From a virus (taxonomy: Duplodnaviria > Heunggongvirae > Uroviricota > Caudoviricetes), in IMG/VR virus record IMGVR_UViG_2541047691_000017: 40,851 nucleotides of DNA; one strand, written 5' to 3'. The translations under genes were made by a program, and so were the position numbers. Below the pieces are notes generated by a model. It was not told the DNA's origin and made no database searches. It was given only the letters and a program-made list of their open reading frames with translations. Below are positions 6,617-35,658 of this stretch, one piece after another. The stretch's first letter is position 1. Each line of letters opens with the position of its first letter.

Positions 6617-6631
6617 TTACCTTTCAGGTAA
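6617..6631. promoter_or_regulatory. Operator-like palindrome TTACC-TTTCA-GGTAA
   Basis: Exact TTACC-N5-GGTAA; upstream of the LexA box and the 6708 gene. Confidence 0.6.
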
Positions 6632-6668: not shown

Positions 6669-6688
6669 TACTGTATAAATATACAGTT
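6669..6688. promoter_or_regulatory. LexA box (SOS box)
   Basis: TACTGTATAAATATACAGTT matches the CTGT-N8-ACAG consensus (TACTGTATATATATACAGTA) at 18 of 20 positions; lies 20 nt upstream of ATG 6708. Confidence 0.75.
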
Positions 6689-6707: not shown

Positions 6708-6965
6708 ATGCAGCAGTATCACTATCCACTGGAAGACGGATTTACCGAAAGGATTCACACGCCGGGAGGCGTCAGGTCACTGGTGGAGGGATCGCACTTG
6801 ATGAAATTACTCCGGGATCTCGATAAGGATGGATTTAATGTCGATGGCCCACTTGCCGAACTGACTGCACTGATTAACTACGTCACCAGCTCACAGATGT
6901 CTATGCAGGATCTGCAAACACATCTCGACTATTGTGCCGAACAATTACGAAAACAAACCAGATAA
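6708..6965 (+). CDS. Small antirepressor-like protein, standalone paralog of the antirepressor C-terminal domain
   Basis: 85 aa from ATG 6708 (MQQYHYP...). Aligns by eye with the C-terminus of the 7283..7933 product (IHTPGGV..SHLMKLL..DG.NVDGPLAELT..Y...DLQTH vs IHSPSGV..SLLMNLL..DGHDVSGAAAELT..Y...DIQTH). The longer listed ORF start at 6585 would place the LexA box inside the coding region. Confidence 0.6.
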   Translation: MQQYHYPLEDGFTERIHTPGGVRSLVEGSHLMKLLRDLDKDGFNVDGPLAELTALINYVTSSQMSMQDLQTHLDYCAEQLRKQTR

Positions 6966-6996: not shown

Positions 6997-7011
6997 TTAC
7001 CTTTGAGGTAA
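6997..7011. promoter_or_regulatory. Operator-like palindrome TTACC-TTTGA-GGTAA
   Basis: Exact TTACC-N5-GGTAA between the 6708 gene and the antirepressor gene. Confidence 0.55.
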
Positions 7012-7101
7012 ATTTACATCGCACTCCTCTTGTGCCATAGTAATCGGGCACTGGCAAAATCCAGTGCCGGGATTGGTCTCCCGGATTACTAAGTGGCGCA
7101 T

Positions 7102-7124
7102 ACCACGCCAGACGTGGTTTTTTT
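7102..7124 (+). terminator. Weak intrinsic terminator
   Basis: Stem ACCACG/CGTGGT around a 5-nt loop followed by T7; downstream of the 6708..6965 gene. Confidence 0.3.
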
Positions 7125-7282
7125 ATGCGTATAGCACAGTCATGCCAGAATTATGGTGGGCTGAATGGGGGTCCGAAAGGACGCCGGTACCACTTAGGCC
7201 GGTAAGACCAACTCCGTTCAGTTCACCACCATCTGATTGGTCTCAGCGGTGGTGATGTAATTCGCTAAGTGGAGACGCCATA

Positions 7283-7933
7283 ATGAACGCTCAACTCATC
7301 CCCGTATTCAACGGCACTATATCCAACGAAACCGCTCTTCTCGTTAATGCCCGTGATTTACACACTTTCCTCGATGTGGGTAAGCGATTTGCTTCGTGGA
7401 TTGTCGAACGAATTTCTGAATATGGTTTCGTTGAAAATCAAGACTTTATGATTATTTCCCAAGTTCGGGAAAAAATAGGCAGAGGCCGTCCTGCAAAAGA
7501 CTACCACCTCACCCTCGATACAGCCAAAGAGCTGGCGATGGTCGAGCGTAACGAAAAAGGTCGTCAGGTACGACGCTACTTCATTGAATGCGAGAAACGT
7601 TTAAGACAACAAGAAACAAAAGTGGAGAAGGTCTTGTCAGGCTTCATGCCCGCCATTATGGAGGCGATCAAGCTGGAAGACAAAAAAGAATACAGTGCCC
7701 CACTGAAGCCCGGCTACCGTAGCCTGATTCATTCGCCGTCTGGTGTTCTCGGCCTGACGGAGAACTCACTGCTGATGAATCTGCTGAACCAGTTACAGGA
7801 CGACGGGCACGACGTATCGGGCGCGGCGGCGGAGCTGACCACCATGTTCTGCTACATCGTCGGTGTGAGCAAATGCCTGCGTGATATCCAGACCCACGCG
7901 GAGTACATCAACGACAAGGCAGGGTTCTTCTGA
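7283..7933 (+). CDS. Phage antirepressor (AntA/AntB-type N-terminal domain plus C-terminal domain)
   Basis: 216 aa; N-terminus (ARDLHTFLDVGKRFASWIVERISEYGFVENQDFMI) fits the AntA/AntB antirepressor domain pattern from memory; RBS GGAG before ATG. Confidence 0.7.
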   Translation: MNAQLIPVFNGTISNETALLVNARDLHTFLDVGKRFASWIVERISEYGFVENQDFMIISQVREKIGRGRPAKDYHLTLDTAKELAMVERNEKGRQVRRYFIECEKRLRQQETKVEKVLSGFMPAIMEAIKLEDKKEYSAPLKPGYRSLIHSPSGVLGLTENSLLMNLLNQLQDDGHDVSGAAAELTTMFCYIVGVSKCLRDIQTHAEYINDKAGFF

Positions 7934-7999: not shown

Positions 8000-8014
8000 T
8001 TACCTTAAAGGTAA
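8000..8014. promoter_or_regulatory. Operator-like palindrome TTACC-TTAAA-GGTAA upstream of the 8041 cassette
   Basis: Exact TTACC-N5-GGTAA, 26 nt upstream of ATG 8041 and before its AGGAGG RBS. Confidence 0.55.
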
Positions 8015-8040: not shown

Positions 8041-8250
8041 ATGGGATTTTGGTTCGCTCGTACAAAAACGAGGGATAATGCACCCAGCCCTCAGGCAAAA
8101 AATGCAGAAGTTCCGGCGTCAGCGCAGGTTAACAAGCGTGGTGGAGTATATATCTCATCACAGCAAATTTCTGAGCTTCCTGAGGTTAAGGAGATGCGTC
8201 GTCTCGCTGCTGCAATTGTTAAACAGGATCTTGCCACTGTAAGGAAATAG
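8041..8250 (+). CDS. Small hydrophilic protein of unknown function, first gene of accessory cassette
   Basis: 69 aa; strong RBS (AGGAGG) before ATG 8041; stop TAG overlaps the GTG start of the next gene (TAGTG). Confidence 0.55.
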   Translation: MGFWFARTKTRDNAPSPQAKNAEVPASAQVNKRGGVYISSQQISELPEVKEMRRLAAAIVKQDLATVRK

Positions 8251-9116
8251 TGTTGTTAGCTCTTCTAATTATCCCCATTCTGGTTAGTGGTTATATTATG
8301 ATAACCGCTAACCAGTATCATTATTTCCGTTTATACCGACATGAAGGCCAGCTTCTTTATATGAAAGTAGCTGCATTAGGTACATATTGCCTTGTTGCAT
8401 CAGTAATAATTGCAGCCGCTATAAAATATAAATGGCCTGATTTTCACCTAGTTCACGATATGGTGGAAACTTTTAATGTAACATCAAAACCAGAAACAGA
8501 TAGAATTTACATGTGGCTGCTTCTTCTCTCAGCCACATCCATTTGCTTCTCTTTGTGTTATGTGTCTGTTGTGTGGGTGAAAGATTTTCTTCTTGGTTGT
8601 TTTTATAAACGTGATATTTACGAGCAAAAAACAGAGGCAATGAAGGCCAGAGTACTGCGAAAAACTTACTCGCAAGGTTCTTTAGACTTACTATTGCTTG
8701 ATGCTATTGAATCGGATCCTAAACGACCAATGTTGATTACTTTATCATCAAACAAAGTGTATGTTGGAATAATAAATGGTTCTGGTGAACCAACGGAAAA
8801 TCAGGGTCCGCATCAGCACATATCTTTTGTTCCTTTAATGTCAGGATACAGGAACAAAGAAAACTTATCTGTCACATTCACTAATGCTTATCCAGGAGAA
8901 ATACAGGTCAAGCGGACTGCAGCAATAAGAGGAATTAGCAGAAAGAAAGTGCTAGGACTTGAGATCATGGTGTCTATTGACGAAATAAGTTATATATCAT
9001 GGTTTGATTTTGAAGTATATAAAGCAACAAATAACAAAGTAGAATCCAGGGGGCACGTTATTCGTGTTACCAAAAATGGAAGAAATATATATCAAAGAAA
9101 TAGCAAAAAAGAATAG
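8250..9116 (+). CDS. Membrane-anchored protein of unknown function (three predicted N-terminal TM helices, about 170-aa soluble C-terminal domain)
   Basis: 288 aa; GTG start with AAGGA RBS 5-6 nt upstream, translationally coupled to 8041..8250; markedly AT-rich relative to neighbours; followed by a strong terminator. Confidence 0.6.
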   Translation: MLLALLIIPILVSGYIMITANQYHYFRLYRHEGQLLYMKVAALGTYCLVASVIIAAAIKYKWPDFHLVHDMVETFNVTSKPETDRIYMWLLLLSATSICFSLCYVSVVWVKDFLLGCFYKRDIYEQKTEAMKARVLRKTYSQGSLDLLLLDAIESDPKRPMLITLSSNKVYVGIINGSGEPTENQGPHQHISFVPLMSGYRNKENLSVTFTNAYPGEIQVKRTAAIRGISRKKVLGLEIMVSIDEISYISWFDFEVYKATNNKVESRGHVIRVTKNGRNIYQRNSKKE

Positions 9117-17696: not shown

Positions 17697-20167
17697 CAGA
17701 ATCCCCCAACAGTAAGGCGAGGAATAACGGCAAGAACAGACAGCGGCAACGGATCAAGCTGACGGATTTTTACACGTCCGTTTTTGCCCCAGTTACTGTC
17801 CAGTTTCACTTCTACTTTTCCGGTAGCATCATCAACAGGATCATCGTAGAACTCGAATTCACGCTGTGGATATTCGTACCATTTACCGCCGGGCGTAGTC
17901 GCCCAGATGCCGCGACTGGCATTCACAACCAGAGTAACGGAGGGGATCACCTGTTTTTTGTCCAGCAGCGTTTCCTGTCCGTTAATGTTGATATCCAGTG
18001 TTTCGAATTCAGCAGTTATTGGCATGCCGATGTGCACTACAGCCCCCGGAGATTCCAGCGTGACGGCACCTCCGGAAACCACTTTCTGTGGTTCCACGTT
18101 CGCATCAGAGAGAATGTTTACGGTCTGGCCTTCAAGATGAGACAGGCCTCCAAATGTCCGGCGCGCCATCTGCCAGTTCGTGGTGGCCACATTCCTGAGG
18201 GATGGCGGGACGTTCCTGTTAGCACGAACCACTACAGCGGTATTGCTGGTTACAGAAATAATGTCGCAACGTAATTCTTTTGACACTTCATCGCCAGTAT
18301 CAGGATCAGTTCCGGTATAAGGGAACTGTAGTTGCGCGCCGACATCACTACTGGTGAAGTACGCACCACCAGAAACACTGATTGTATATTCCGCACGGTA
18401 ATCCCATTCACCAGAACCACCAGTGATGGTCATCGTTCTGTCAGACGTATTTCTTCCATCATAGCTAAGGCCAGAATCAACAAAGAAAGCATCTTCATCG
18501 CTGGTAAATAAACGGCTGGACAGTCGCTCGATGTATCTCACTGTTTGCCCGTTAACGGTTCGGTTAATGACGAAATACACCGCATCTTCATTGCCTTCGC
18601 TGATACTGCATGTGCTTTCATATTTTCCGGTACTGGACTGTGGTGCCCATGCAAAAACCTGTTGATCACGCAAATAGGTCATCACCAGTAATTTACCGTC
18701 ATCACGAATGCAGAAGGCGCTGGAGTAAGGGACAATAGAGAAGCACCAGTCAACAATGCTGTGCTTCTGAAAAAGATGATTGGCAAGGATAGTAAGGTCG
18801 TTCCCCTGATAGCCGTCAACATCGAATGAGTAGGCCAGATCACGGACAACACTGCCTTTCTCCTGGACGAACAGAGCAATATTCGCCACGGCAATTGGTG
18901 GGACATTGCTCGAACCATTTGATCCCTGAGAGCTGAATGCAAATGATGATGGAGTTAATACTTTGTTCTGGTCGCCGGTGATGACGTACTCACCTCCGGA
19001 AGTCAGTGCCACCAGCGAACCGACATCAATCAGGTGGCGGATCTCATTAACCTGACGCCCGGCATAGGTGTAGATAATTCTGTCGTCATCCTGCGTAGGA
19101 TTGCTTTTGCCAAAATCCTTATAATCCCCAGTACGGCTGGCCCAGATAGTCTGAGGGAACGCTGTCGATGCGGCGAAGTAAAGACGTTGTTGATAATAAA
19201 CAACCGTGCCAGGATAACCGTTAACACTGTTCCAGGCATATTTAGCCCATTTATAGCTGGCATTATCCTCGCCAACGACCTGCGAAGGGATATAGGAAAT
19301 CACCTCAGCAGTTGCAGTAGTGCCATTTACAGCAGTTATACGGGCAATGCCAAAACCACTGTGCAGATACTCCCACTCAATGCCAGTATCATCATCACCG
19401 GATCCGCCCCAGCCATCCCATGATGTGCCTTCTGTATGCGAAGGGCGCAAAGTGCCTGTTTTGCCTGCTGTAACGGCGCGATAGTAGTTACTGTCTGCAC
19501 GGCGAATATCGCCAATCGACGTACTCTTACTGGTTTCCCATACCGGCACAGAATCCACTGCAGGCTGTTCCAGATAGAACAATTTGCCTACCTGCTCCGC
19601 GCCAAAAATAGAGGCGCTTGCCGTTAACGTAATTGTCCCGGTGCTGGCGCTGGCATAAACCGTCACTGACTCATCAATATTGATATCTTCAAATGGCCCG
19701 TTCTTCGTTACCACATCAACCAGTTGCCAGTTGTCATGCGCATAGCGGCGCAGCTCTTTCGGCGGGTATGCCGGGTGAACCAGCGTAAGCACGTCGGCGC
19801 TTTGCGTGAATTTAATTCGGAACAGATCGGCTTCAGTATATGGCGTGGCAATTTCATAAATAACATTGCTGCTGTTCAGCACCAACGCACCATCTTTGAT
19901 AACGCGCATGTACTGGTGTCCGAACTCCAGAGCATAAGTCTGAACCGTCGAGAATTGGAACGGGATCAGGCGGCATTTCCGATTTGGGTATTTGGCGGCA
20001 CCGACAAAACGCGTACCAGGTCGATTCTCAACGCCGCCATACTGCCGCACGATAAAGTTATCGCACTTGCGCAATGCTACCTGGTACTTCGCCATGTCAA
20101 TACGCCCGTACAACGACGGTCCAATCTCACCACCGGCAAAGCTGGGCTGGATCCAACTGATAGCCAT
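17696..20167 (-). CDS. Tail tubular protein B (T7 gp12-like)
   Basis: 823 aa; N-terminus MAISWIQPSFAGGEIGPSLYGR resembles the start of T7-type gp12 as recalled (MALISQSIKNLKGGISQQPDILR); size and position match. Confidence 0.65.
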   Translation of the reverse strand: MAISWIQPSFAGGEIGPSLYGRIDMAKYQVALRKCDNFIVRQYGGVENRPGTRFVGAAKYPNRKCRLIPFQFSTVQTYALEFGHQYMRVIKDGALVLNSSNVIYEIATPYTEADLFRIKFTQSADVLTLVHPAYPPKELRRYAHDNWQLVDVVTKNGPFEDINIDESVTVYASASTGTITLTASASIFGAEQVGKLFYLEQPAVDSVPVWETSKSTSIGDIRRADSNYYRAVTAGKTGTLRPSHTEGTSWDGWGGSGDDDTGIEWEYLHSGFGIARITAVNGTTATAEVISYIPSQVVGEDNASYKWAKYAWNSVNGYPGTVVYYQQRLYFAASTAFPQTIWASRTGDYKDFGKSNPTQDDDRIIYTYAGRQVNEIRHLIDVGSLVALTSGGEYVITGDQNKVLTPSSFAFSSQGSNGSSNVPPIAVANIALFVQEKGSVVRDLAYSFDVDGYQGNDLTILANHLFQKHSIVDWCFSIVPYSSAFCIRDDGKLLVMTYLRDQQVFAWAPQSSTGKYESTCSISEGNEDAVYFVINRTVNGQTVRYIERLSSRLFTSDEDAFFVDSGLSYDGRNTSDRTMTITGGSGEWDYRAEYTISVSGGAYFTSSDVGAQLQFPYTGTDPDTGDEVSKELRCDIISVTSNTAVVVRANRNVPPSLRNVATTNWQMARRTFGGLSHLEGQTVNILSDANVEPQKVVSGGAVTLESPGAVVHIGMPITAEFETLDININGQETLLDKKQVIPSVTLVVNASRGIWATTPGGKWYEYPQREFEFYDDPVDDATGKVEVKLDSNWGKNGRVKIRQLDPLPLSVLAVIPRLTVGGF

Positions 20168-21929: not shown

Positions 21930-21980
21930 CTTCTTTCTCCATTAGTGGGTCTGTTACGACCCACAGGTTAATAACAGGCG

Positions 21981-25941: not shown

Positions 25942-25978
25942 TTGACATTTAACGCACTAATTATTACCTTTCAGGTAA
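25942..25978 (+). promoter_or_regulatory. Putative promoter (-35 TTGACA) with downstream operator-like palindrome TTACC-TTTCA-GGTAA (25964..25978)
   Basis: TTGACA at 25942-25947; palindrome identical to the 6617 site; no clean -10 hexamer at standard spacing, so promoter strength is uncertain. Confidence 0.45.
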
Positions 25979-26300: not shown

Positions 26301-26377
26301 GTGGCATTAGCTCAGTTGGACAGAGCAACCGCCTTCTAAGCGGTTGGTCGCAGGTTCGAATCCTGCATGCCACGCCA
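26301..26377 (+). tRNA. tRNA-Arg (anticodon UCU), argU-like
   Basis: 77 nt folded by hand: 7-bp acceptor stem GTGGCAT/ATGCCAC, D-arm GCTC/GAGC, anticodon stem ACCGC/GCGGT with loop CTTCTAA (anticodon TCT), T-arm GCAGG-TTCGAAT-CCTGC, encoded CCA. Confidence 0.9.
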
Positions 26378-27041: not shown

Positions 27042-28517
27042 TTAAGCATAGGGATCGTAATCTGTAATGGCCTTGCCTTGCTGGTTCTGCTGCCCGGGAA
27101 TTCGCAGGCGCTTTGACACCGGGAACGCAAACGTCAGCAGTAGCGCATCGCCTTTACCAGGAGAACGCCCAAGCCGCTCCTTGATATCTTCCTTCGGTTC
27201 GATAACGATTTTACCGTCCACTCGAACTTTGTACTCTGCCGCCGACAGGTCGTCCGCTGTTTCCTGGTCATCAAGCATGCCGCCCAGCCTCAGCCATGTC
27301 TTGCATGAGTTGAACATCTCCCCACGCTTGTTGAGCATCTGCTGGTCAGTAGACGCGCCACCGAACGGAACAAGTTGCCATGTACGACCCCAGCCGTCAC
27401 CGATTGACTTCAAACCGGTTCCGTAACCGAAGTCGATGAACACCGCGTCAGCCTGATACTGGTCTTCAAAGTCAGCGATACGCTTCGCCATAATCAGATC
27501 GTCGGTAGTCTTGTTGCCAGTCCACAGCACCTTACTGTGTAGCCCCTGCCGCAGGTATATCACAGCGTCATCAACGCCGGAGTATGCCGGGTCAACGCCG
27601 ATTATCACCGGAGCATGTGCCACCTGCGCAGCAGTTACCACCCGTTTCATTGCCTCGTCAGTAAGACCGGTAGGGATAAACTGCAATTCAGATGCATCAG
27701 GGAATATGCCACGCACACGGATTTTAACGAAGTCGCTATCTTCCCCGTAGTCATCAACCCATTTCTGCAACTGCTGTTTGTTGGTGCCTTCCACCGTCCT
27801 GCTGTCAATCTGCGCAGTTTTCCAGCGGTGTTTGTATTTGCGGAAACATTCACGGAAACGCCCGGTGTTACGTGTAGGGTTTCCGAAAGCCACCCAGATA
27901 ATCTCAGTGTCTTCGTCCGTTAGCGCACCCTCGGCAACTTCCCACACCAGATCCGCAATGTTCGACGCTTCATCAAATACCACGATGATGCGTTTACGCT
28001 CGTTGTGTAGTCCGGCGAATGCCTCAGTGTTGTGCTCAGACCAGGGGATTGCGTCAGCTCGCCACCGCTTGTCGTGCCCAGGGTCATTGCTGTACATCGC
28101 GGTAGCGGTACAGGTAAACCAGTCTTTCGTGATAGCAAGGTTTGACCACTTGATAATTTCCGGCCAGGTCTTCGTTCGTAGCTGGTTGTCGGTGTTGGCG
28201 GTCACCACGACCTTACAATCCTCGCAAGTGGACATGCCCCAGTTGATCAGCATTGAGATGAATGCGGATTTACCAATACCGTGACCAGAAGCACGTGCCA
28301 GCATAAGCGGCTGATATCGCGTCTCTGGATTCTGCAGGTGATCACGTATCTCTCGGAACGCATCGGCCTGCCACTGACGTGGACCGGTGGCATGTGCCAG
28401 TTCAGTACCCTCTTCCCCCCACGGGAACGCATAGAGGGCATAGCCAAGCGGATCGTGAGTGAACCCTGCAATATCCTCGATTAACTGCTCTTCAGGAGAT
28501 AACGCTGTATCTGTCAC
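27042..28517 (-). CDS. Terminase large subunit
   Basis: 491 aa; Walker A-like motif (ARASGHGIGKS) in the N-terminal ATPase region; overlaps the small-subunit gene. Confidence 0.85.
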   Translation of the reverse strand: MTDTALSPEEQLIEDIAGFTHDPLGYALYAFPWGEEGTELAHATGPRQWQADAFREIRDHLQNPETRYQPLMLARASGHGIGKSAFISMLINWGMSTCEDCKVVVTANTDNQLRTKTWPEIIKWSNLAITKDWFTCTATAMYSNDPGHDKRWRADAIPWSEHNTEAFAGLHNERKRIIVVFDEASNIADLVWEVAEGALTDEDTEIIWVAFGNPTRNTGRFRECFRKYKHRWKTAQIDSRTVEGTNKQQLQKWVDDYGEDSDFVKIRVRGIFPDASELQFIPTGLTDEAMKRVVTAAQVAHAPVIIGVDPAYSGVDDAVIYLRQGLHSKVLWTGNKTTDDLIMAKRIADFEDQYQADAVFIDFGYGTGLKSIGDGWGRTWQLVPFGGASTDQQMLNKRGEMFNSCKTWLRLGGMLDDQETADDLSAAEYKVRVDGKIVIEPKEDIKERLGRSPGKGDALLLTFAFPVSKRLRIPGQQNQQGKAITDYDPYA

Positions 28518-29110
28518 TGATTGCCATCCTGACGTTCTTTCAGTCTCTTCCTGGCTGCCGCTATGCGATCAGCAATTGTCACATTCACATTAACATCCAG
28601 GCGTTCTTTGAATGCGTTGACGTCGACGTGCTTACCAATCAGTTCGAGGTTCTTCACCTTGTCAGGCCATTTAATTTTTTTGAGGATTGTCTCTATCGAA
28701 TCCTCGTTCATGTTCATGATGGTCGATGACAGATCAAAGCCGCTAAGCGTAGTGCGCCAGATTTTCGGCCACTCTCGGATTGGCTTAAGGCTACCATCGT
28801 CGTTGAGGATGTCGATCACGTCCATCTGGTCGATCTCCACCAAGCGCATGAGAACGTAATCAGCACTGACGCGCATTCGTTTGTTGCGCTCCTCCATCAA
28901 CTCGGCAATCCGTTTTTGAATGCGTTCATCGCGCATCATGACACTGGCTTTAACTGCCGCTGTATTTGGGGAGAATCCTGCGTTAATCGCTGCCTGAGTC
29001 TGGTTTTCAGGCGTTTTGATGTATGACTGGCAATAAGCCTCCTGCATTGCTGTTAGTGGCTTAAATTGCGTTGATTTGCGTTTATAGGCTTTAGGTTCAG
29101 CAGGCATCAT
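28514..29110 (-). CDS. Terminase small subunit
   Basis: Immediately upstream of and overlapping the large subunit; start set at the MMPAEPK methionine (29108-29110), could extend to 29188; basic N-terminal region. Confidence 0.6.
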   Translation of the reverse strand: MMPAEPKAYKRKSTQFKPLTAMQEAYCQSYIKTPENQTQAAINAGFSPNTAAVKASVMMRDERIQKRIAELMEERNKRMRVSADYVLMRLVEIDQMDVIDILNDDGSLKPIREWPKIWRTTLSGFDLSSTIMNMNEDSIETILKKIKWPDKVKNLELIGKHVDVNAFKERLDVNVNVTIADRIAAARKRLKERQDGNQ

Positions 29111-29220
29111 AACCACCGTGGTAATAGTTACCGTTGTGGTAATAGTACCATGCAAAATAAAGCCGCCATAGTTGGCGGCAGTATTCAAACCCCATCAAAT
29201 TCATCATGCATAATCTACTC

Positions 29221-32002: not shown

Positions 32003-32017
32003 TTACCCCTGAGGTAA
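32003..32017. promoter_or_regulatory. Operator-like palindrome TTACC-CCTGA-GGTAA
   Basis: Exact TTACC-N5-GGTAA, 4 nt upstream of the start codon of the 31652..31999 gene. Confidence 0.5.
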
Positions 32018-32064
32018 TTAAAAACCACATAAGACAAGAAATCAATAGATTTTAGAATATTTTA

Positions 32065-32079
32065 TTACCTCATAGGTAA
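32065..32079. promoter_or_regulatory. Operator-like palindrome TTACC-TCATA-GGTAA
   Basis: Exact TTACC-N5-GGTAA in the intergenic region downstream of the P-like gene. Confidence 0.5.
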
Positions 32080-33729: not shown

Positions 33730-33930
33730 TCAGCTTGAATGTTGTGGGGAGGAATTAATCATGATCTGCTTAATCTCTGCCCTGATACGACGGTTTGATT
33801 CCATGGTGCACTCAACACAGTGTCCGTTGTAAACCCAACGTTCACTGTCATGTCCGTGCTTACATGGTTTTCCGGTGTAGTAGCGTTTAAGTCCGCGCTT
33901 TGCGGCATCAATACGTGTAATGATTTCCAT
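33730..33930 (-). CDS. Small Cys/His-containing protein (cII-position gene, function unknown)
   Basis: Start at ATG 33928-33930 (MEIITRIDAAKRG...); contains C-x-H-G-H...C-x-x-C; between the Cro-like and O-like genes. Confidence 0.4.
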   Translation of the reverse strand: MEIITRIDAAKRGLKRYYTGKPCKHGHDSERWVYNGHCVECTMESNRRIRAEIKQIMINSSPQHSS

Positions 33931-34010
33931 GGTAAGCCCTGTTATTAGTATTGGGATTACGGTCATTTTGTGCTGACACAAAAAAAAGATCAACCAGATT
34001 TGGTTTTTTA

Positions 34011-34025
34011 TTACCTTTGAGGTGC
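34011..34025. promoter_or_regulatory. Degenerate operator-like site TTACC-TTTGA-GGTGC
   Basis: Left half exact, right half 3 of 5; in the intergenic region downstream of the Cro-like gene. Confidence 0.35.
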
Positions 34026-34036
34026 GAATAGATATG

Positions 34037-34058
34037 AAAAGACCGCCGGGTGGCGGTC
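34037..34058 (-). terminator. Intrinsic terminator downstream of the Cro-like gene (tR1-like position)
   Basis: Perfect stem GACCGCC/GGCGGTC with 4-nt loop; on the minus strand it is followed by TTTT. Confidence 0.6.
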
Positions 34059-34080
34059 TACAGAGGGTTGTGGCTGGATA

Positions 34081-34311
34081 TCATGAGTAGAAGAAGTATG
34101 CCAGTTCTGCTTTTGAGCGCAGCCATTGTCTTGTTTTACAGGCTTTAAAAAGCCCATTCATCAATACTTTACCTGGCATTTTGCGCTTACCTGTTAAGTG
34201 AGTCTGGATATAGTGACTCGTCGTTCCGGCTTCCTGTGCGAAGGCTTCACGCTCATCCGGAGTAAGTGCAAGCCAGTGCTTTTTGAAATCGAAATGTCCG
34301 TTATCGCTCAT
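34081..34311 (-). CDS. Cro-like HTH regulator
   Basis: 76 aa; HTH-like segment (REAFAQEAGTTSHYIQTHLTGKRKMP); divergent from the repressor gene across an operator-containing intergenic region; followed by terminator and replication genes. Confidence 0.6.
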   Translation of the reverse strand: MSDNGHFDFKKHWLALTPDEREAFAQEAGTTSHYIQTHLTGKRKMPGKVLMNGLFKACKTRQWLRSKAELAYFFYS

Positions 34312-34347
34312 AGCTATTGCCTGATATTTATTTCAGATAATAAATAT

Positions 34348-34362
34348 TCACCCATAAGGTAA
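34348..34362. promoter_or_regulatory. Operator site 1 in repressor/cro intergenic region (TCACC-CATAA-GGTAA)
   Basis: 9 of 10 match to TTACC-N5-GGTAA; forms a larger inverted repeat with the 34379 site (CACCCATAAGGTAAC ... GTTACCTATGGGGTG). Confidence 0.55.
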
Positions 34363-34378
34363 CAAAAATCAAGGATAG

Positions 34379-34393
34379 TTACCTATGGGGTGC
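34379..34393. promoter_or_regulatory. Operator site 2 (TTACC-TATGG-GGTGC)
   Basis: Left half exact, right half degenerate; mirror partner of the 34348 site. Confidence 0.5.
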
Positions 34394-34395
34394 AT

Positions 34396-34410
34396 TTACC
34401 TGTTGGGTAA
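34396..34410. promoter_or_regulatory. Operator site 3 (TTACC-TGTTG-GGTAA)
   Basis: Exact TTACC-N5-GGTAA, 56 nt upstream of the repressor start codon. Confidence 0.6.
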
Positions 34411-34465
34411 TATTGCTTTAAATTGAATCATCTACTGATTCATATACGAGGCGATTTTCCAGAAA

Positions 34466-35050
34466 ATGAAAAGTATCCAGGACGTCCGCAGGCAAAATCT
34501 CAACGACTTGATCGACCGTGAATTCAATGGTGTTCAGACGCGGATGGCAGAAAAACTTGGAACTCAGGCAAATCTGGTAAACCGCTGGGCTCTTGGCAAG
34601 AAGGTTATCGGCGACCAGGTTGCGCGAAAAATTGAAGCTGCCGCCAATAAACCCCGTAACTGGCTTGATATCGATCGCTCGCTTTCTCAGGAAGGTTTTC
34701 AGCCTGTCGGCCCAAGCGACATTGGCCAGCTGGCGGCTCACAACCTGGAACGCTGGATGAGCGAAAGCCGCGACCTTTCAACACAGGGAAAACTTCACCG
34801 CGCATCCGGCGTCGCCCAGGTGACAATCAGCCGCCTGTTAAACAATGAGGTCAGCGTTTCCATTTCCACCCTGGAGAATGTTGCATCCGCATTCGGGCGT
34901 CACGGCTATGAATTACTGATTCACCCGCACGACCCTGCGACCATCAACTATGACCGCTCGCGCTACGCATTGTTACCCGAAACCGAGAAAGCAAAGATCG
35001 AAAGTTACATTGAATTTGTCATCAACCAGAACGAAAAAAACAAACAATAA
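34466..35050 (+). CDS. Prophage repressor candidate: tandem-HTH (two XRE-type HTH domains) protein without an autocleavage domain
   Basis: 194 aa; HTH-like segments TRMAEKLGTQANLVNRWALGKK and ASGVAQVTISRLLNNEVSVSISTL; no Ala-Gly / Ser-Lys peptidase S24 module seen; divergent from Cro-like gene. Confidence 0.6.
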   Translation: MKSIQDVRRQNLNDLIDREFNGVQTRMAEKLGTQANLVNRWALGKKVIGDQVARKIEAAANKPRNWLDIDRSLSQEGFQPVGPSDIGQLAAHNLERWMSESRDLSTQGKLHRASGVAQVTISRLLNNEVSVSISTLENVASAFGRHGYELLIHPHDPATINYDRSRYALLPETEKAKIESYIEFVINQNEKNKQ

Positions 35051-35107
35051 AATCATATTTTTCAGTAAGTAAGCCGCCTTCTGGCGGCTTTTTTATTGCC
35101 TATACTA

Positions 35108-35122
35108 TTACCTAATGGGTAA
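35108..35122. promoter_or_regulatory. Operator-like palindrome TTACC-TAATG-GGTAA (OL-like)
   Basis: Exact TTACC-N5-GGTAA upstream of the early-operon promoter. Confidence 0.55.
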
Positions 35123-35141
35123 TTTTTTTAACTCATATCTA

Positions 35142-35184
35142 TTGACATCAAACCAAATACGCATAATTATTACCTAAACGGTAA
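35142..35184 (+). promoter_or_regulatory. Putative early promoter (-35 TTGACA at 35142-35147) with overlapping operator TTACC-TAAAC-GGTAA (35170..35184)
   Basis: TTGACA followed by AT-rich -10 candidates and an exact operator palindrome; precedes the rightward recombination operon (pL-like position). Confidence 0.55.
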
Positions 35185-35203
35185 CAGACCGAGGTAACAA
35201 GTT

Positions 35204-35356
35204 ATGCAGTGGAAAATCATCAACGGTTGGTGCTGCGTTACTGCATGCGGATTCATGAGCTGGAAGTTCCGCACCTTACAGGAAGGCATTAAGTGGGCTT
35301 TCGTCAGCAAAGAAGCTCGCGATGTGGCCAACGATAACGAGATATGGGAGGTCTGA
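35204..35356 (+). CDS. Small hypothetical protein (50 aa), first gene of early operon
   Basis: ATG 35204 with GAGG RBS; Trp/Cys-containing; below the 60-aa ORF-track cutoff, translated manually. Confidence 0.3.
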   Translation: MQWKIINGWCCVTACGFMSWKFRTLQEGIKWAFVSKEARDVANDNEIWEV

Positions 35357-35358
35357 TA

Positions 35359-35658
35359 ATGAACGTTAATCAGCAGAAAAATCTTCAAAAAATCATGCTG
35401 GCATTCGACAAGGACTACCGCCTGTCAGAACAGCTATATGACCGACAAGTTGAACTGATCGAGAGCATCCGGCTTCATCAACTAGCCTCAACTTTCGACG
35501 CTGTAACAGGTAAAGGCGTTCGCCAGGAAGTACTGGAGGCCGCTAAAGACAGTCCAGAGTTCGAAGAACTGATGGATTCCTACCGGCGCGAGGCAATGGC
35601 AATTATAGCGCGCTGGGATCTGGCGGATCAGCTTGATGGGCAGAGGGACGCGGCATGA
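35359..35658 (+). CDS. Hypothetical early protein
   Basis: Start ATG 35359 (MNVNQQKNLQK...), GGAGG RBS; ATGA overlap with the exonuclease gene. Confidence 0.45.
   Translation: MNVNQQKNLQKIMLAFDKDYRLSEQLYDRQVELIESIRLHQLASTFDAVTGKGVRQEVLEAAKDSPEFEELMDSYRREAMAIIARWDLADQLDGQRDAA

Follow-up and report, generated by a model that had tools for sequence, protein, structure and literature searches.

The immunity region of a phiV10/epsilon15-like podovirus and its very probable SPC32H-type Rep-Ant switch

The closest described relative of the switch considered here is the Rep-Ant system of Salmonella phage SPC32H (PDB 5D50 and 5D4Z; Kim and Ryu 2013 J Virol; Kim et al. 2016 PNAS), a member of the same genus. 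In PMC9986798 (section 3.3) and PMC9638917, both citing Kim et al. 2016, DNA binding is assigned to the N-terminal domains of the SPC32H Rep tetramer, and the 92-198 fragment of Rep (5D4Z), which crystallises as a homotetramer, is divided into a middle dimerisation domain and a C-terminal tetramerisation and Ant-binding domain; the latter source also describes DNA binding by dimeric Rep as weak. LexA-controlled antirepression in this phage group is mentioned in PMC7380047, which cites Kim and Ryu 2013. The epsilon15 record refers its repressor to 5d50_A and marks dispersed sites as repressor-binding.

Several other systems resemble this one in part. Prophages Gifsy-1, Gifsy-3 and Fels-2, and coliphage 186 with Tum, likewise combine an uncleavable repressor with SOS induction through LexA derepression of a small repressor-binding protein (PMC7380047); this likeness is drawn by logic alone, and not by protein sequence. 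They differ from the SPC32H type in that Ant of the latter, according to PMC9638917 and bioRxiv 10.1101/2025.11.27.690993, acts on the C-terminal domain of the repressor and dismantles the tetramer instead of masking the DNA-binding surface. Rco of the Bacillus plasmid pLS20 has an N-terminal HTH DNA-binding domain, a C-terminal tetramerisation domain (p53-like TetDloop) that shares the fold of the one in Rep, and antirepressor control (PMC9986798), but it lacks the middle dimerisation domain and regulates plasmid conjugation rather than serving as a phage repressor.

The stretch of DNA analysed here (IMG/VR record IMGVR_UViG_2541047691_000017, 40,851 nucleotides, hereafter the window) constitutes the complete genome of a podovirus of the phiV10/epsilon15 type (Uetakevirus), whose immunity region is 97-99% identical to those of phiV10, ZX5, PAS61 and BP9. 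We regard this region as, very probably, the primary immunity region of a phiV10/epsilon15-type temperate podovirus that runs an SPC32H-type Rep-Ant switch; our own analysis covers the homology, domain layout, operators, LexA box and synteny on which this view is built. With SPC32H the phage shares full-length Rep homology and the three-domain layout, an Ant that is 88% identical with a syntenic LexA box, the TTACC-N5-GGTAA consensus, an OR of three sites, and the locations of the other operators in the genome. It differs in that the two Reps are only 42% identical, that OL has three sites in SPC32H and two here, and that SPC32H lacks the extra large antirepressor module carried downstream of ant. 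A preliminary description had seen in this locus an atypical solution for a lambdoid switch. That view is not upheld: the Rep-Ant switch is of a kind already known, structurally solved in the sister phage SPC32H, and the phiV10 record for p40 already carries the remark 'two helix-turn-helix motifs'. The repressor gene and the domains of its product are as follows.

34466-35050, plus strand: rep, prophage repressor of the SPC32H Rep family, 194 aa
34466-34651, plus strand: predicted N-terminal HTH DNA-binding domain (aa 1-62), from sequence and model
aa 63-84, plus strand: disordered linker, AF2 pLDDT below 50 over residues 63-82
34718-34921, plus strand: middle HTH_3-fold dimerisation domain (aa 85-152), by homology to 5D4Z
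34922-35047, plus strand: C-terminal tetramerisation/Ant-binding domain (aa 153-194), by homology to 5D4Z

Rep is 100% identical to phiV10 p40 and to ORF21 of vB_EcoP_ZX5, and there is no difference of substance between these repressors. It matches SPC32H Rep (PDB 5D50_A) over its full length (phmmer E=4e-42, query 1-190 against chain 2-197), with 41.8% identity over 98% of the length, distributed as 55% in the N domain, 32% in the middle domain and 45% in the C-terminal domain; residues 89-190 align to the homotetrameric fragment 5D4Z with E=4e-20. The two HTH-like segments noticed earlier in this 194-aa ORF are borne out by Pfam, which finds HTH_3 in two stretches (the best at residues 106-147, E=1.2e-9) and a weak match to HTH-type YdaS at residues 21-61. 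The reported lack of a LexA/CI autocleavage module stands as well, as no S24 or other peptidase was found in Rep by Pfam search, taken down to E=1 for S24, and in phmmer and Foldseek comparisons the C-terminal half matches 5D4Z and not the LexA or CI catalytic domains. The further premise that the protein has no other dimerisation or cleavage domain must be given up, since dimerisation and tetramerisation domains match 5D4Z. The AF2 monomer, of moderate confidence (pLDDT 74.7, pTM 0.40), consists of two bundles of 4-5 helices (helices 4-59 and 85-151) followed by C-terminal helices 164-193, including a long one; the strand of the tetramerisation domain is not visible in this model. Its best PDB matches in Foldseek are 5d50 and 5d4z, with TM 0.78 on the C-terminal half. 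The preliminary description had picked up neither the C-terminal oligomerisation module nor the LexA-controlled ant gene (6708-6965).

The presence of two HTH_3-type segments in one chain had led to the suggestion that a single Rep polypeptide reads the palindrome as a pseudo-dimer, with one HTH domain on each half-site and without oligomerisation. With about 20 residues, the flexible linker might in principle be long enough for one operator, and the 10-bp spacing of half-sites suits two HTH units, but we consider such a mode of binding extremely unlikely. The second HTH-like segment falls inside the region that matches the homotetrameric 92-198 fragment of SPC32H Rep, and DNA binding in that protein is assigned to the N-terminal domain (PMC9986798 and PMC9638917). 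The two motifs are identical at 3 of 23 positions across the helix-turn-helix and differ at every specificity position, yet the two half-sites mirror each other exactly. No internal duplication was detected when the N domain was compared with the middle domain by BLASTP (E=1.1), and the N domain is basic (pI 10.3), as opposed to the near-neutral middle domain (pI 6.3). Among five phages with Reps only 42-78% identical, the recognition-helix motif of the first HTH, NLVNRW, is invariant, and each of them has TTACC-N5-GGTAA operators; the corresponding helix in the second HTH drifts among these same phages, despite the shared operator. Co-variation of recognition helix and operator was sought in the five genomes and, because the half-site is invariant among relatives, as NLVNRW is, it is only co-conservation that links the operator half-site to the N-terminal helix. 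The weak binding of DNA by the SPC32H Rep dimer (PMC9638917) also speaks against a pseudo-dimer.

A more limited role in DNA contact may be envisaged for the middle domain, which would touch DNA secondarily, either non-specifically or at the variable 5-bp spacer or the flanks, in addition to dimerising, and would thereby help related phages to discriminate between operators. This domain has a bona fide HTH_3 fold, as indicated by the E-value of 1.2e-9, and all five phages have the same T120 and R123 in its third helix; moreover, half-sites are identical while Reps differ, so that any immunity specificity must have another source. We nevertheless judge such a contact very unlikely. The near-neutral charge of the domain argues against it, the invariant residues could equally serve the dimer interface, and the solved homologue is described, in PMC9986798, as having solely a dimerisation domain at this place. 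On our preferred reading, the first HTH would be the DNA reader and the second part of an oligomerisation module.

Operators were searched for with the motif TTACCNNNNNGGTAA (TTACC-N5-GGTAA), as perfect copies and as copies with up to 2 mismatches, and compared with shuffled sequence. The window holds 10 perfect copies against 0.02 expected, and 37 copies with up to 2 mismatches against 12.0 +/- 3.6 expected. The surroundings of rep contain the following elements.

34011-34025: weak operator-like site TTACCTTTGAGGTGC, 2 mismatches, directly past the terminator of the Cro-like gene
34059-34040, minus strand: terminator of the Cro-like gene
34081-34311, minus strand: Cro-like gene, 76 aa (phiV10 p41, epsilon15 gp39), divergent from rep
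34348-34362: operator OR-a, TCACCCATAAGGTAA, 1 mismatch, between rep and the Cro-like gene
34379-34393: operator OR-b, TTACCTATGGGGTGC, 2 mismatches, 31 bp from OR-a
34396-34410: operator OR-c, TTACCTGTTGGGTAA, perfect, 17 bp from OR-b, rep-proximal
35071-35090, plus strand: intrinsic terminator after rep, annotated at the same place in phiV10
35108-35122: operator OL-2, TTACCTAATGGGTAA, perfect, upstream of the -35 of the early promoter
35142-35170, plus strand: predicted early (PL-like) promoter TTGACA-17-AATTAT, 10/12 match
35170-35184: operator OL-1, TTACCTAAACGGTAA, perfect, 62 bp from OL-2

Three operators between rep and the Cro-like gene (34348, 34379 and 34396) and two around the downstream early promoter (35108 and 35170) are thus found where the preliminary description had placed them. 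The OR triple and its spacings of 31 and 17 bp recur in four relatives (17 and 30-31 bp there), which indicates that OR-b is genuine in spite of its 2 mismatches; all four have an operator at its position, which matches perfectly in epsilon15, SPC32H and BUCT711 and has 2 mismatches in Tyrion. OR-a occupies the spacer and -10 region of a leftward promoter-like sequence, TTGTTA-17-TATTAT (34365 to 34337). The larger inverted repeat reported at OR is present solely in the form of arms of 18 nt (34346-34363 and 34378-34395) that are 78% complementary; they amount to two imperfect operators in mirrored orientation, with no additional element. In the search for a rep promoter (PRM), a conserved TAATAT at the end of OR-c was found without an acceptable -35, and the other candidates are weak and lack conservation.

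On the other side of rep, OL-1 adjoins the -10 of the early promoter and overlaps its predicted start site, so that OL-1 and OL-2 flank 35142-35170. The TTGAC of this promoter is invariant in 5 of 5 phages, and it would drive the recombination operon from 35204 onward (exonuclease, RecT). The Cro-like protein matches PHROG 35, 'transcriptional repressor', with E=5.6e-13, which is its sole support, the Pfam search having returned no match. In the gap between the Cro-like gene and the next gene, an operator-like site with 1 mismatch is present in Tyrion (35365) and in BUCT711 (6032), and TTACCATAAAGGTGT can be read in SPC32H. A 2-mismatch site inside the Cro-like gene, at 34187, is probably due to chance, since some 12 matches of this kind are expected over the whole window.

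In its layout the region is like those of phages with lambda CI or P22 C2: the repressor and cro genes diverge from a tripartite OR, and the repressor gene runs the same way as the leftward early operon with its OL sites. Unlike these repressors and LexA, Rep has no S24 domain and would oligomerise through an HTH_3-fold domain and a strand-helix tetramerisation domain, and its operators are scattered through the genome.

In the record of phage BP9 the identical gene goes by the name 'plasmid maintenance system antidote protein VapI', which, together with the weak Pfam match to YdaS, might suggest that Rep is an antitoxin-type regulator of the HigA/VapI kind and not a prophage repressor. There is next to no chance of this being correct. 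No toxin gene is adjacent; the location of the gene, its divergent Cro-like neighbour and the presence of operators at the two early promoters are those of an immunity region; and Rep is homologous to a proven repressor, SPC32H Rep. In ZX5, which is inducible by mitomycin C, overexpression of the identical ORF21 resulted in zero free phage and reduced the endolysin transcript by 99.99% (PMC9782041). We have therefore rejected the BP9 label; the product of ORF 34466-35050 is the prophage repressor, with repression of lytic genes carried over from identical ZX5 ORF21, and the earlier identification of the repressor and its immunity region was correct.

A repressor without a peptidase leaves SOS induction to be accounted for, and the explanation lies far from rep, where ant sits behind a LexA box.

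6617-6631: Rep operator, perfect, in the gap between the tailspike gene and ant
6671-6686: LexA (SOS) box CTGTATAAATATACAG, context TACTGTATAAATATACAGTT, near-consensus, 22 bp upstream of the ant start codon
6708-6965, plus strand: ant, antirepressor and Rep partner, 85 aa
6997-7011: Rep operator, perfect, before the second antirepressor module
7048-7124, plus strand: IsrK-like sRNA, with a terminator at 7102-7118
7149-7233, plus strand: C4-type antisense RNA
7283-7933, plus strand: large antirepressor, AntA N-terminal domain and Ant-homologous C-terminal domain, 216 aa

Ant matches PDB 5D50_E, 'Anti-repressor protein', with E=4e-47; its identity to SPC32H Ant is 88%. As in SPC32H, its gene adjoins the tailspike gene, and a syntenic LexA box, TACTGTATGTTTATACAGTG, lies upstream of the SPC32H ant. 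Small ORFs of the 6708-6965 type are often labelled 'hypothetical' in phiV10-like records, and the ZX5 copy is a 'hypothetical protein'. Two other matches to CTGT-N8-ACAG, at 21951 and 26493, were discarded as chance, about 0.6 being expected, and both lack the AT-rich consensus core. The operator at 6617-6631 precedes the best candidate -35 of ant by about 15 bp, which makes repression of ant by Rep through this site a candidate, not an established, interaction.

The larger protein encoded downstream of ant matches PF08346 (E=7e-28) and PHROG 377, 'anti-repressor Ant', and is 44% identical to small Ant over 78 aa. Rfam models RF01394 (67.7 bits) and RF01695 (61.2 bits) both exceed their gathering scores over 7048-7233, and the IsrK-like and C4-type RNAs make up the leader of this gene. 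The last ~80 aa of the protein are nearly identical to those of ZX5 ORF4; the antirepressor tested in ZX5 was the large Bro-N protein, not the small SPC32H-type Ant. In the larger antirepressor the Ant-homologous domain follows an exchangeable N-terminal domain (AntA here, Bro-N in ZX5), and its gene is preceded by the two RNAs and by a Rep operator of its own.

Outside the immunity region, further perfect operators are found, along with a 1-mismatch copy at 29110-29124. In addition to those at 6617 and 6997, they are as follows.

8000-8014: Rep operator, perfect, upstream of ORFs 8041-8250 and 8250-9116
25964-25978: Rep operator, perfect, in the divergent region that separates the portal/structural operon from the tRNA-Arg unit
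29110-29142: Rep operator pair 18 bp apart, 29110-29124 with 1 mismatch and 29128-29142 perfect
32003-32079: Rep operator pair 62 bp apart, 32003-32017 and 32065-32079, both perfect, in the gap that separates the P-like replication gene from the DUF1064 gene

The site at 6617-6631 is syntenic with epsilon15 19895-19911, annotated as protein_bind 'repressor', and is also present in SPC32H at 20013; that at 25964-25978 corresponds to epsilon15 2931-2947 (annotated 'repressor') and to SPC32H 3175. The pair at 29110-29142 spans the start of the listed small-terminase ORF (28514-29188, minus strand), the true start of which may be further downstream, and an 18-bp pair upstream of terS is also found in SPC32H, epsilon15 and Tyrion. 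The 62-bp pair of 32003-32079 recurs in 4 of 4 relatives, one of its members being annotated 'repressor' in epsilon15. Each of the operator spacings of 17, 30-31, 62 and 18 bp is kept in three or four of the four relatives. We infer from the sequence which promoter each operator would control; Rep probably shuts about six more promoter regions beyond OR and OL. The seven distant perfect operators and the 1-mismatch copy had gone unnoticed in the preliminary description.

The mechanism is very probably as follows, with the Rep tetramer, the domain roles and the action of Ant taken from the literature on SPC32H, whose Rep shares 42% identity overall with the one here and 32% in the middle domain. 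The N-terminal HTH domain of Rep (aa 1-62) would read the TTACC half-site, the middle HTH_3-fold domain (aa 85-152) would dimerise the protein without reading DNA, and the C-terminal domain (aa 153-194) would join two dimers into a tetramer and serve as the docking place of the antirepressor. Each palindrome would be taken by a pair of identical N-terminal domains, so that one tetramer could hold two operators, and a single tetramer may bridge both sites of a 62-bp pair. Rep would close the divergent Cro-like promoter at the three sites of OR, and the early recombination promoter at the two sites of OL, 62 bp apart around -35 and -10. DNA damage would act indirectly, because Rep has no peptidase: cleavage of LexA would derepress the 85-aa ant (6708-6965), and Ant would bind the C-terminal domains of Rep and split the tetramer into dimers, with release of DNA.

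More tentatively, and with rather less chance of being right than wrong, phiV10-type phages might set two separately gated antirepressors against one Rep, namely the LexA-gated 85-aa Ant and the larger 7283-7933 protein, and might trap promoters in small loops where one Rep tetramer bridges a 62-bp operator pair. Both ideas are absent from the literature examined, to which the primary SPC32H papers did not belong.

Beyond correct annotation, the locus has little significance. The second HTH of Rep should be annotated as an oligomerisation domain and not as a DNA reader, and ORF 6708-6965 as an SOS-controlled antirepressor. The Rep operator is a genome-wide motif at about eight promoter regions, which would be useful for the engineering of phiV10-type reporter or therapeutic phages.

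The window is the complete genome (40.8 kb) of a temperate podovirus of the phiV10/epsilon15 type, genus Uetakevirus. The region 33900-35400 is 97-99% identical to phiV10, vB_EcoP_ZX5, PAS61, BP9 and others; its identity to Enterobacter phage Tyrion is about 77%. Gene order near the immunity region is that of phiV10: on the minus strand, in the order of transcription, the Cro-like gene is followed by a small gene and by genes for a DnaT-like protein and a lambda-P-like replication protein, and the opposite strand carries the repressor gene, two small genes, an exonuclease gene and RecT. The small ORF 3' of the Cro-like gene (33733-33993, minus strand) is the equivalent of epsilon15 gp40 (PHROG 1081, function unknown) and sits where one might look for a CII-like regulator; its Cys/His pattern CKHGH...CVEC suggests a zinc ribbon. 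A tRNA-Arg gene (anticodon TCT; 26301-26377, plus strand) is flanked by the structural operon and a gene of the N4 gp49/Sf6 gp66 family; SPC32H carries a tRNA-Arg gene in the syntenic position. The elements of the immunity region are as follows.

34348, operator with one mismatch, between rep and the divergent 76-aa gene
34379, operator with two mismatches, same interval
34396, perfect operator, same interval
34466-35050, plus strand, rep, repressor ORF of 194 aa
35071-35090, rep terminator
35108, perfect OL operator
35142-35170, strong promoter-like TTGACA-17-AATTAT, directly 3' of the rep terminator and bracketed by the OL operators
35170, perfect OL operator

The repressor, Rep, is 100% identical to phiV10 p40, annotated in GenBank as having "two helix-turn-helix motifs (PF01381)", and to ZX5 ORF21. 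Pfam searches bear out the two HTH-like segments of the preliminary description, with a YdaS-type HTH at residues 21-61 and two stretches matched by HTH_3, the best at residues 106-147; they also agree with its repressor free of a peptidase, as no S24 or other peptidase was found down to E=1. Rep is homologous over its full length to the repressor Rep from Salmonella phage SPC32H (42% identity; 55% in the N domain, 32% in the middle and 45% in the C-terminal domain). Residues 1-190 match the SPC32H Rep-Ant complex (PDB structure: 5D50, E=4e-42), and residues 89-190 match SPC32H Rep 92-198 (5D4Z, E=4e-20). The AlphaFold2 model, built on an alignment of 39 homologues, consists of a helical bundle (4-59), a disordered linker (63-82), a second bundle of five helices (85-151) and a C-terminal helical segment (164-193); its best PDB matches are the same two entries, with TM 0.78 over the C-terminal half.

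SPC32H Rep is described as having three domains, an N-terminal DNA-binding, a middle dimerisation, and a C-terminal one that makes the tetramer and binds Ant (PMC9986798). As summarized in PMC9638917, citing Kim et al. 2016, the DNA-bound form is a tetramer, while DNA binding by the dimer is weak; each palindrome is occupied by two DNA-binding domains contributed by different dimers, and tetrameric Ant binds two Rep dimers, breaking the Rep tetramer. By homology, the oligomeric state of Rep and the action of Ant would be the same here. The second "HTH" (106-147) lies within the middle dimerisation domain.

The preliminary description proposed that a single chain could read the palindrome as a pseudo-dimer through its two HTH segments, and took a dimerisation or cleavage domain as evidence that would refute this. 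Homology to SPC32H Rep places a dimerisation domain in the middle of the chain, which counts against the proposal. Reading a symmetric palindrome takes two equivalent units. Of 23 positions compared between the HTH motifs, three are identical, BLASTP detects no similarity between the N and middle domains (E=1.1), and the former is strongly basic (pI 10.3) whereas the latter is not (pI 6.3). The half-site TTACC is kept in all five phages compared, whose Reps are only 42-78% identical; NLVNRW of the first recognition helix is likewise unchanged in all five, whereas most positions of the equivalent helix in the second HTH have changed. Motif comparison, charge and conservation fit an N-terminal reader acting as a homo-oligomer; a single chain reading both half-sites fits none of them.

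Ten perfect copies of the operator, TTACC-N5-GGTAA, occur in the window, where chance predicts 0.02. The three sites between rep and the divergent gene, and the two around the downstream promoter, are located as first described. The copy at 34379, with its two mismatches, is genuine because epsilon15, SPC32H, Tyrion and Klebsiella phage BUCT711 have an operator at that position; the OR spacings of 17 and 30-31 bp are the same in these phages. No convincing promoter for rep itself was found: TAATAT, conserved at the end of the 34396 operator, lacks a suitable -35, and other candidates are weak and not conserved. The larger 15-bp inverted repeat noted earlier does reflect two operators in inverted arrangement, but it has 18-nt arms of 78% complementarity and is merely these two imperfect operators facing each other, with nothing extra. 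A weak operator-like site (34011-34025, two mismatches) lies directly 3' of the terminator of the Cro-like gene and 5' of the next gene, adjoining a short palindrome, AACCAGATTTGGTT (33992-34005). The equivalent place holds a one-mismatch site in Tyrion and BUCT711, and in SPC32H TTACCATAAAGGTGT can be read there; these sites hint at a separate Rep-controlled entry point for the replication genes.

The original observation stands, yet is incomplete: seven more perfect copies and one with a single mismatch lie outside the immunity region.

6617, putative Rep operator, between the tailspike gene and ant
6708-6965, plus strand, ant, 85-aa ORF adjoining the tailspike gene, at the same place as in SPC32H
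6997-7933, second antirepressor module, 3' of ant
6997-7011, putative Rep operator, perfect, 5' in this module
7013-7041, promoter-like TTTACA-17-CATAGT
7048-7124, IsrK-like RNA (Rfam match), ending in a terminator
7149-7233, C4-type antisense RNA (Rfam match), followed by the gene for a 216-aa protein
8000, putative Rep operator
25964, putative Rep operator, between the structural operon and the tRNA-Arg unit
29110 and 29128 (29110-29142), putative Rep operators, start of terS
32003 and 32065 (32003-32079), putative Rep operators, 3' of the replication genes

Copies stand at syntenic places in SPC32H, epsilon15, Tyrion and BUCT711. Several of those in epsilon15 are already annotated in GenBank as protein_bind "repressor", in a record that also cites 5d50_A for the repressor gene. 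Centre-to-centre spacing of neighbouring sites, compared between the window and these four other Uetakevirus genomes, is conserved at 62 bp in the OL pair (63 in BUCT711) and in the pair 3' of the replication genes; the pair 5' of terS keeps 18 bp in three of the four relatives. A spacing of 62 bp corresponds to roughly six turns of the helix, and each Rep tetramer offers four DNA-binding domains, from which we infer that one tetramer might bridge each 62-bp pair, enclosing the promoter.

Ant shares 88% identity with its SPC32H counterpart and aligns to the Ant chain of 5D50 with E=4e-47. A near-consensus LexA box, TACTGTATAAATATACAGTT, lies 22 bases 5' of the ant start codon; its syntenic counterpart in SPC32H reads TACTGTATGTTTATACAGTG. 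The best candidate for the ant core promoter, TGGATA-17-TACTGT, is conserved in SPC32H; the ant-proximal operator lies upstream of it and may act on the divergent promoter of the tailspike gene instead. At the position of the small Ant, ZX5 (L006 809-1066) and phiV10 (p24, L007 1709-1966) each have an ORF of 258 nt, or 85 aa, annotated only as 'hypothetical protein'; the correspondence to Ant is by position. Induction in this phage group runs through a LexA-controlled antirepressor, which inhibits the repressor by protein-protein contact (review, PMC7380047); this accounts for SOS induction with a repressor that has no peptidase. ZX5, whose repressor is identical to Rep, is inducible by mitomycin C, and overexpression of its repressor gives zero free phage and lowers the endolysin transcript by 99.99% (PMC9782041), so that repression by the cloned gene has in effect been demonstrated with ZX5 ORF21.

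The second module is absent from SPC32H. The last ~80 residues of its 216-aa AntA-domain protein share 44% identity with the small SPC32H-type Ant; in ZX5 ORF4, the antirepressor tested in the ZX5 paper, this C-terminal domain follows a Bro-N domain, and the phiV10 counterpart is truncated within the Ant-like domain.

By homology, the immunity region is an SPC32H-type Rep-Ant switch in function and membership; every defining feature testable here is present. Lambda resembles it in layout only (divergent repressor and cro genes, tripartite OR, OL sites), whereas the Gifsy, Fels-2 and 186 systems are alike in logic, with a LexA-controlled antirepressor in all. Nothing in the immunity-region finding is new; all of it is already known. 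Only two items might repay work, the larger antirepressor behind IsrK-like and C4-type RNAs, and the half-sites and Ant shared among phages with different Reps. Between the window and SPC32H, the half-sites and the first recognition helix do not differ and Ant is 88% identical, whereas identity between the Reps is only 42%; cross-immunity, cross-induction, or both, are therefore predicted between phiV10-type and epsilon15-type prophages.
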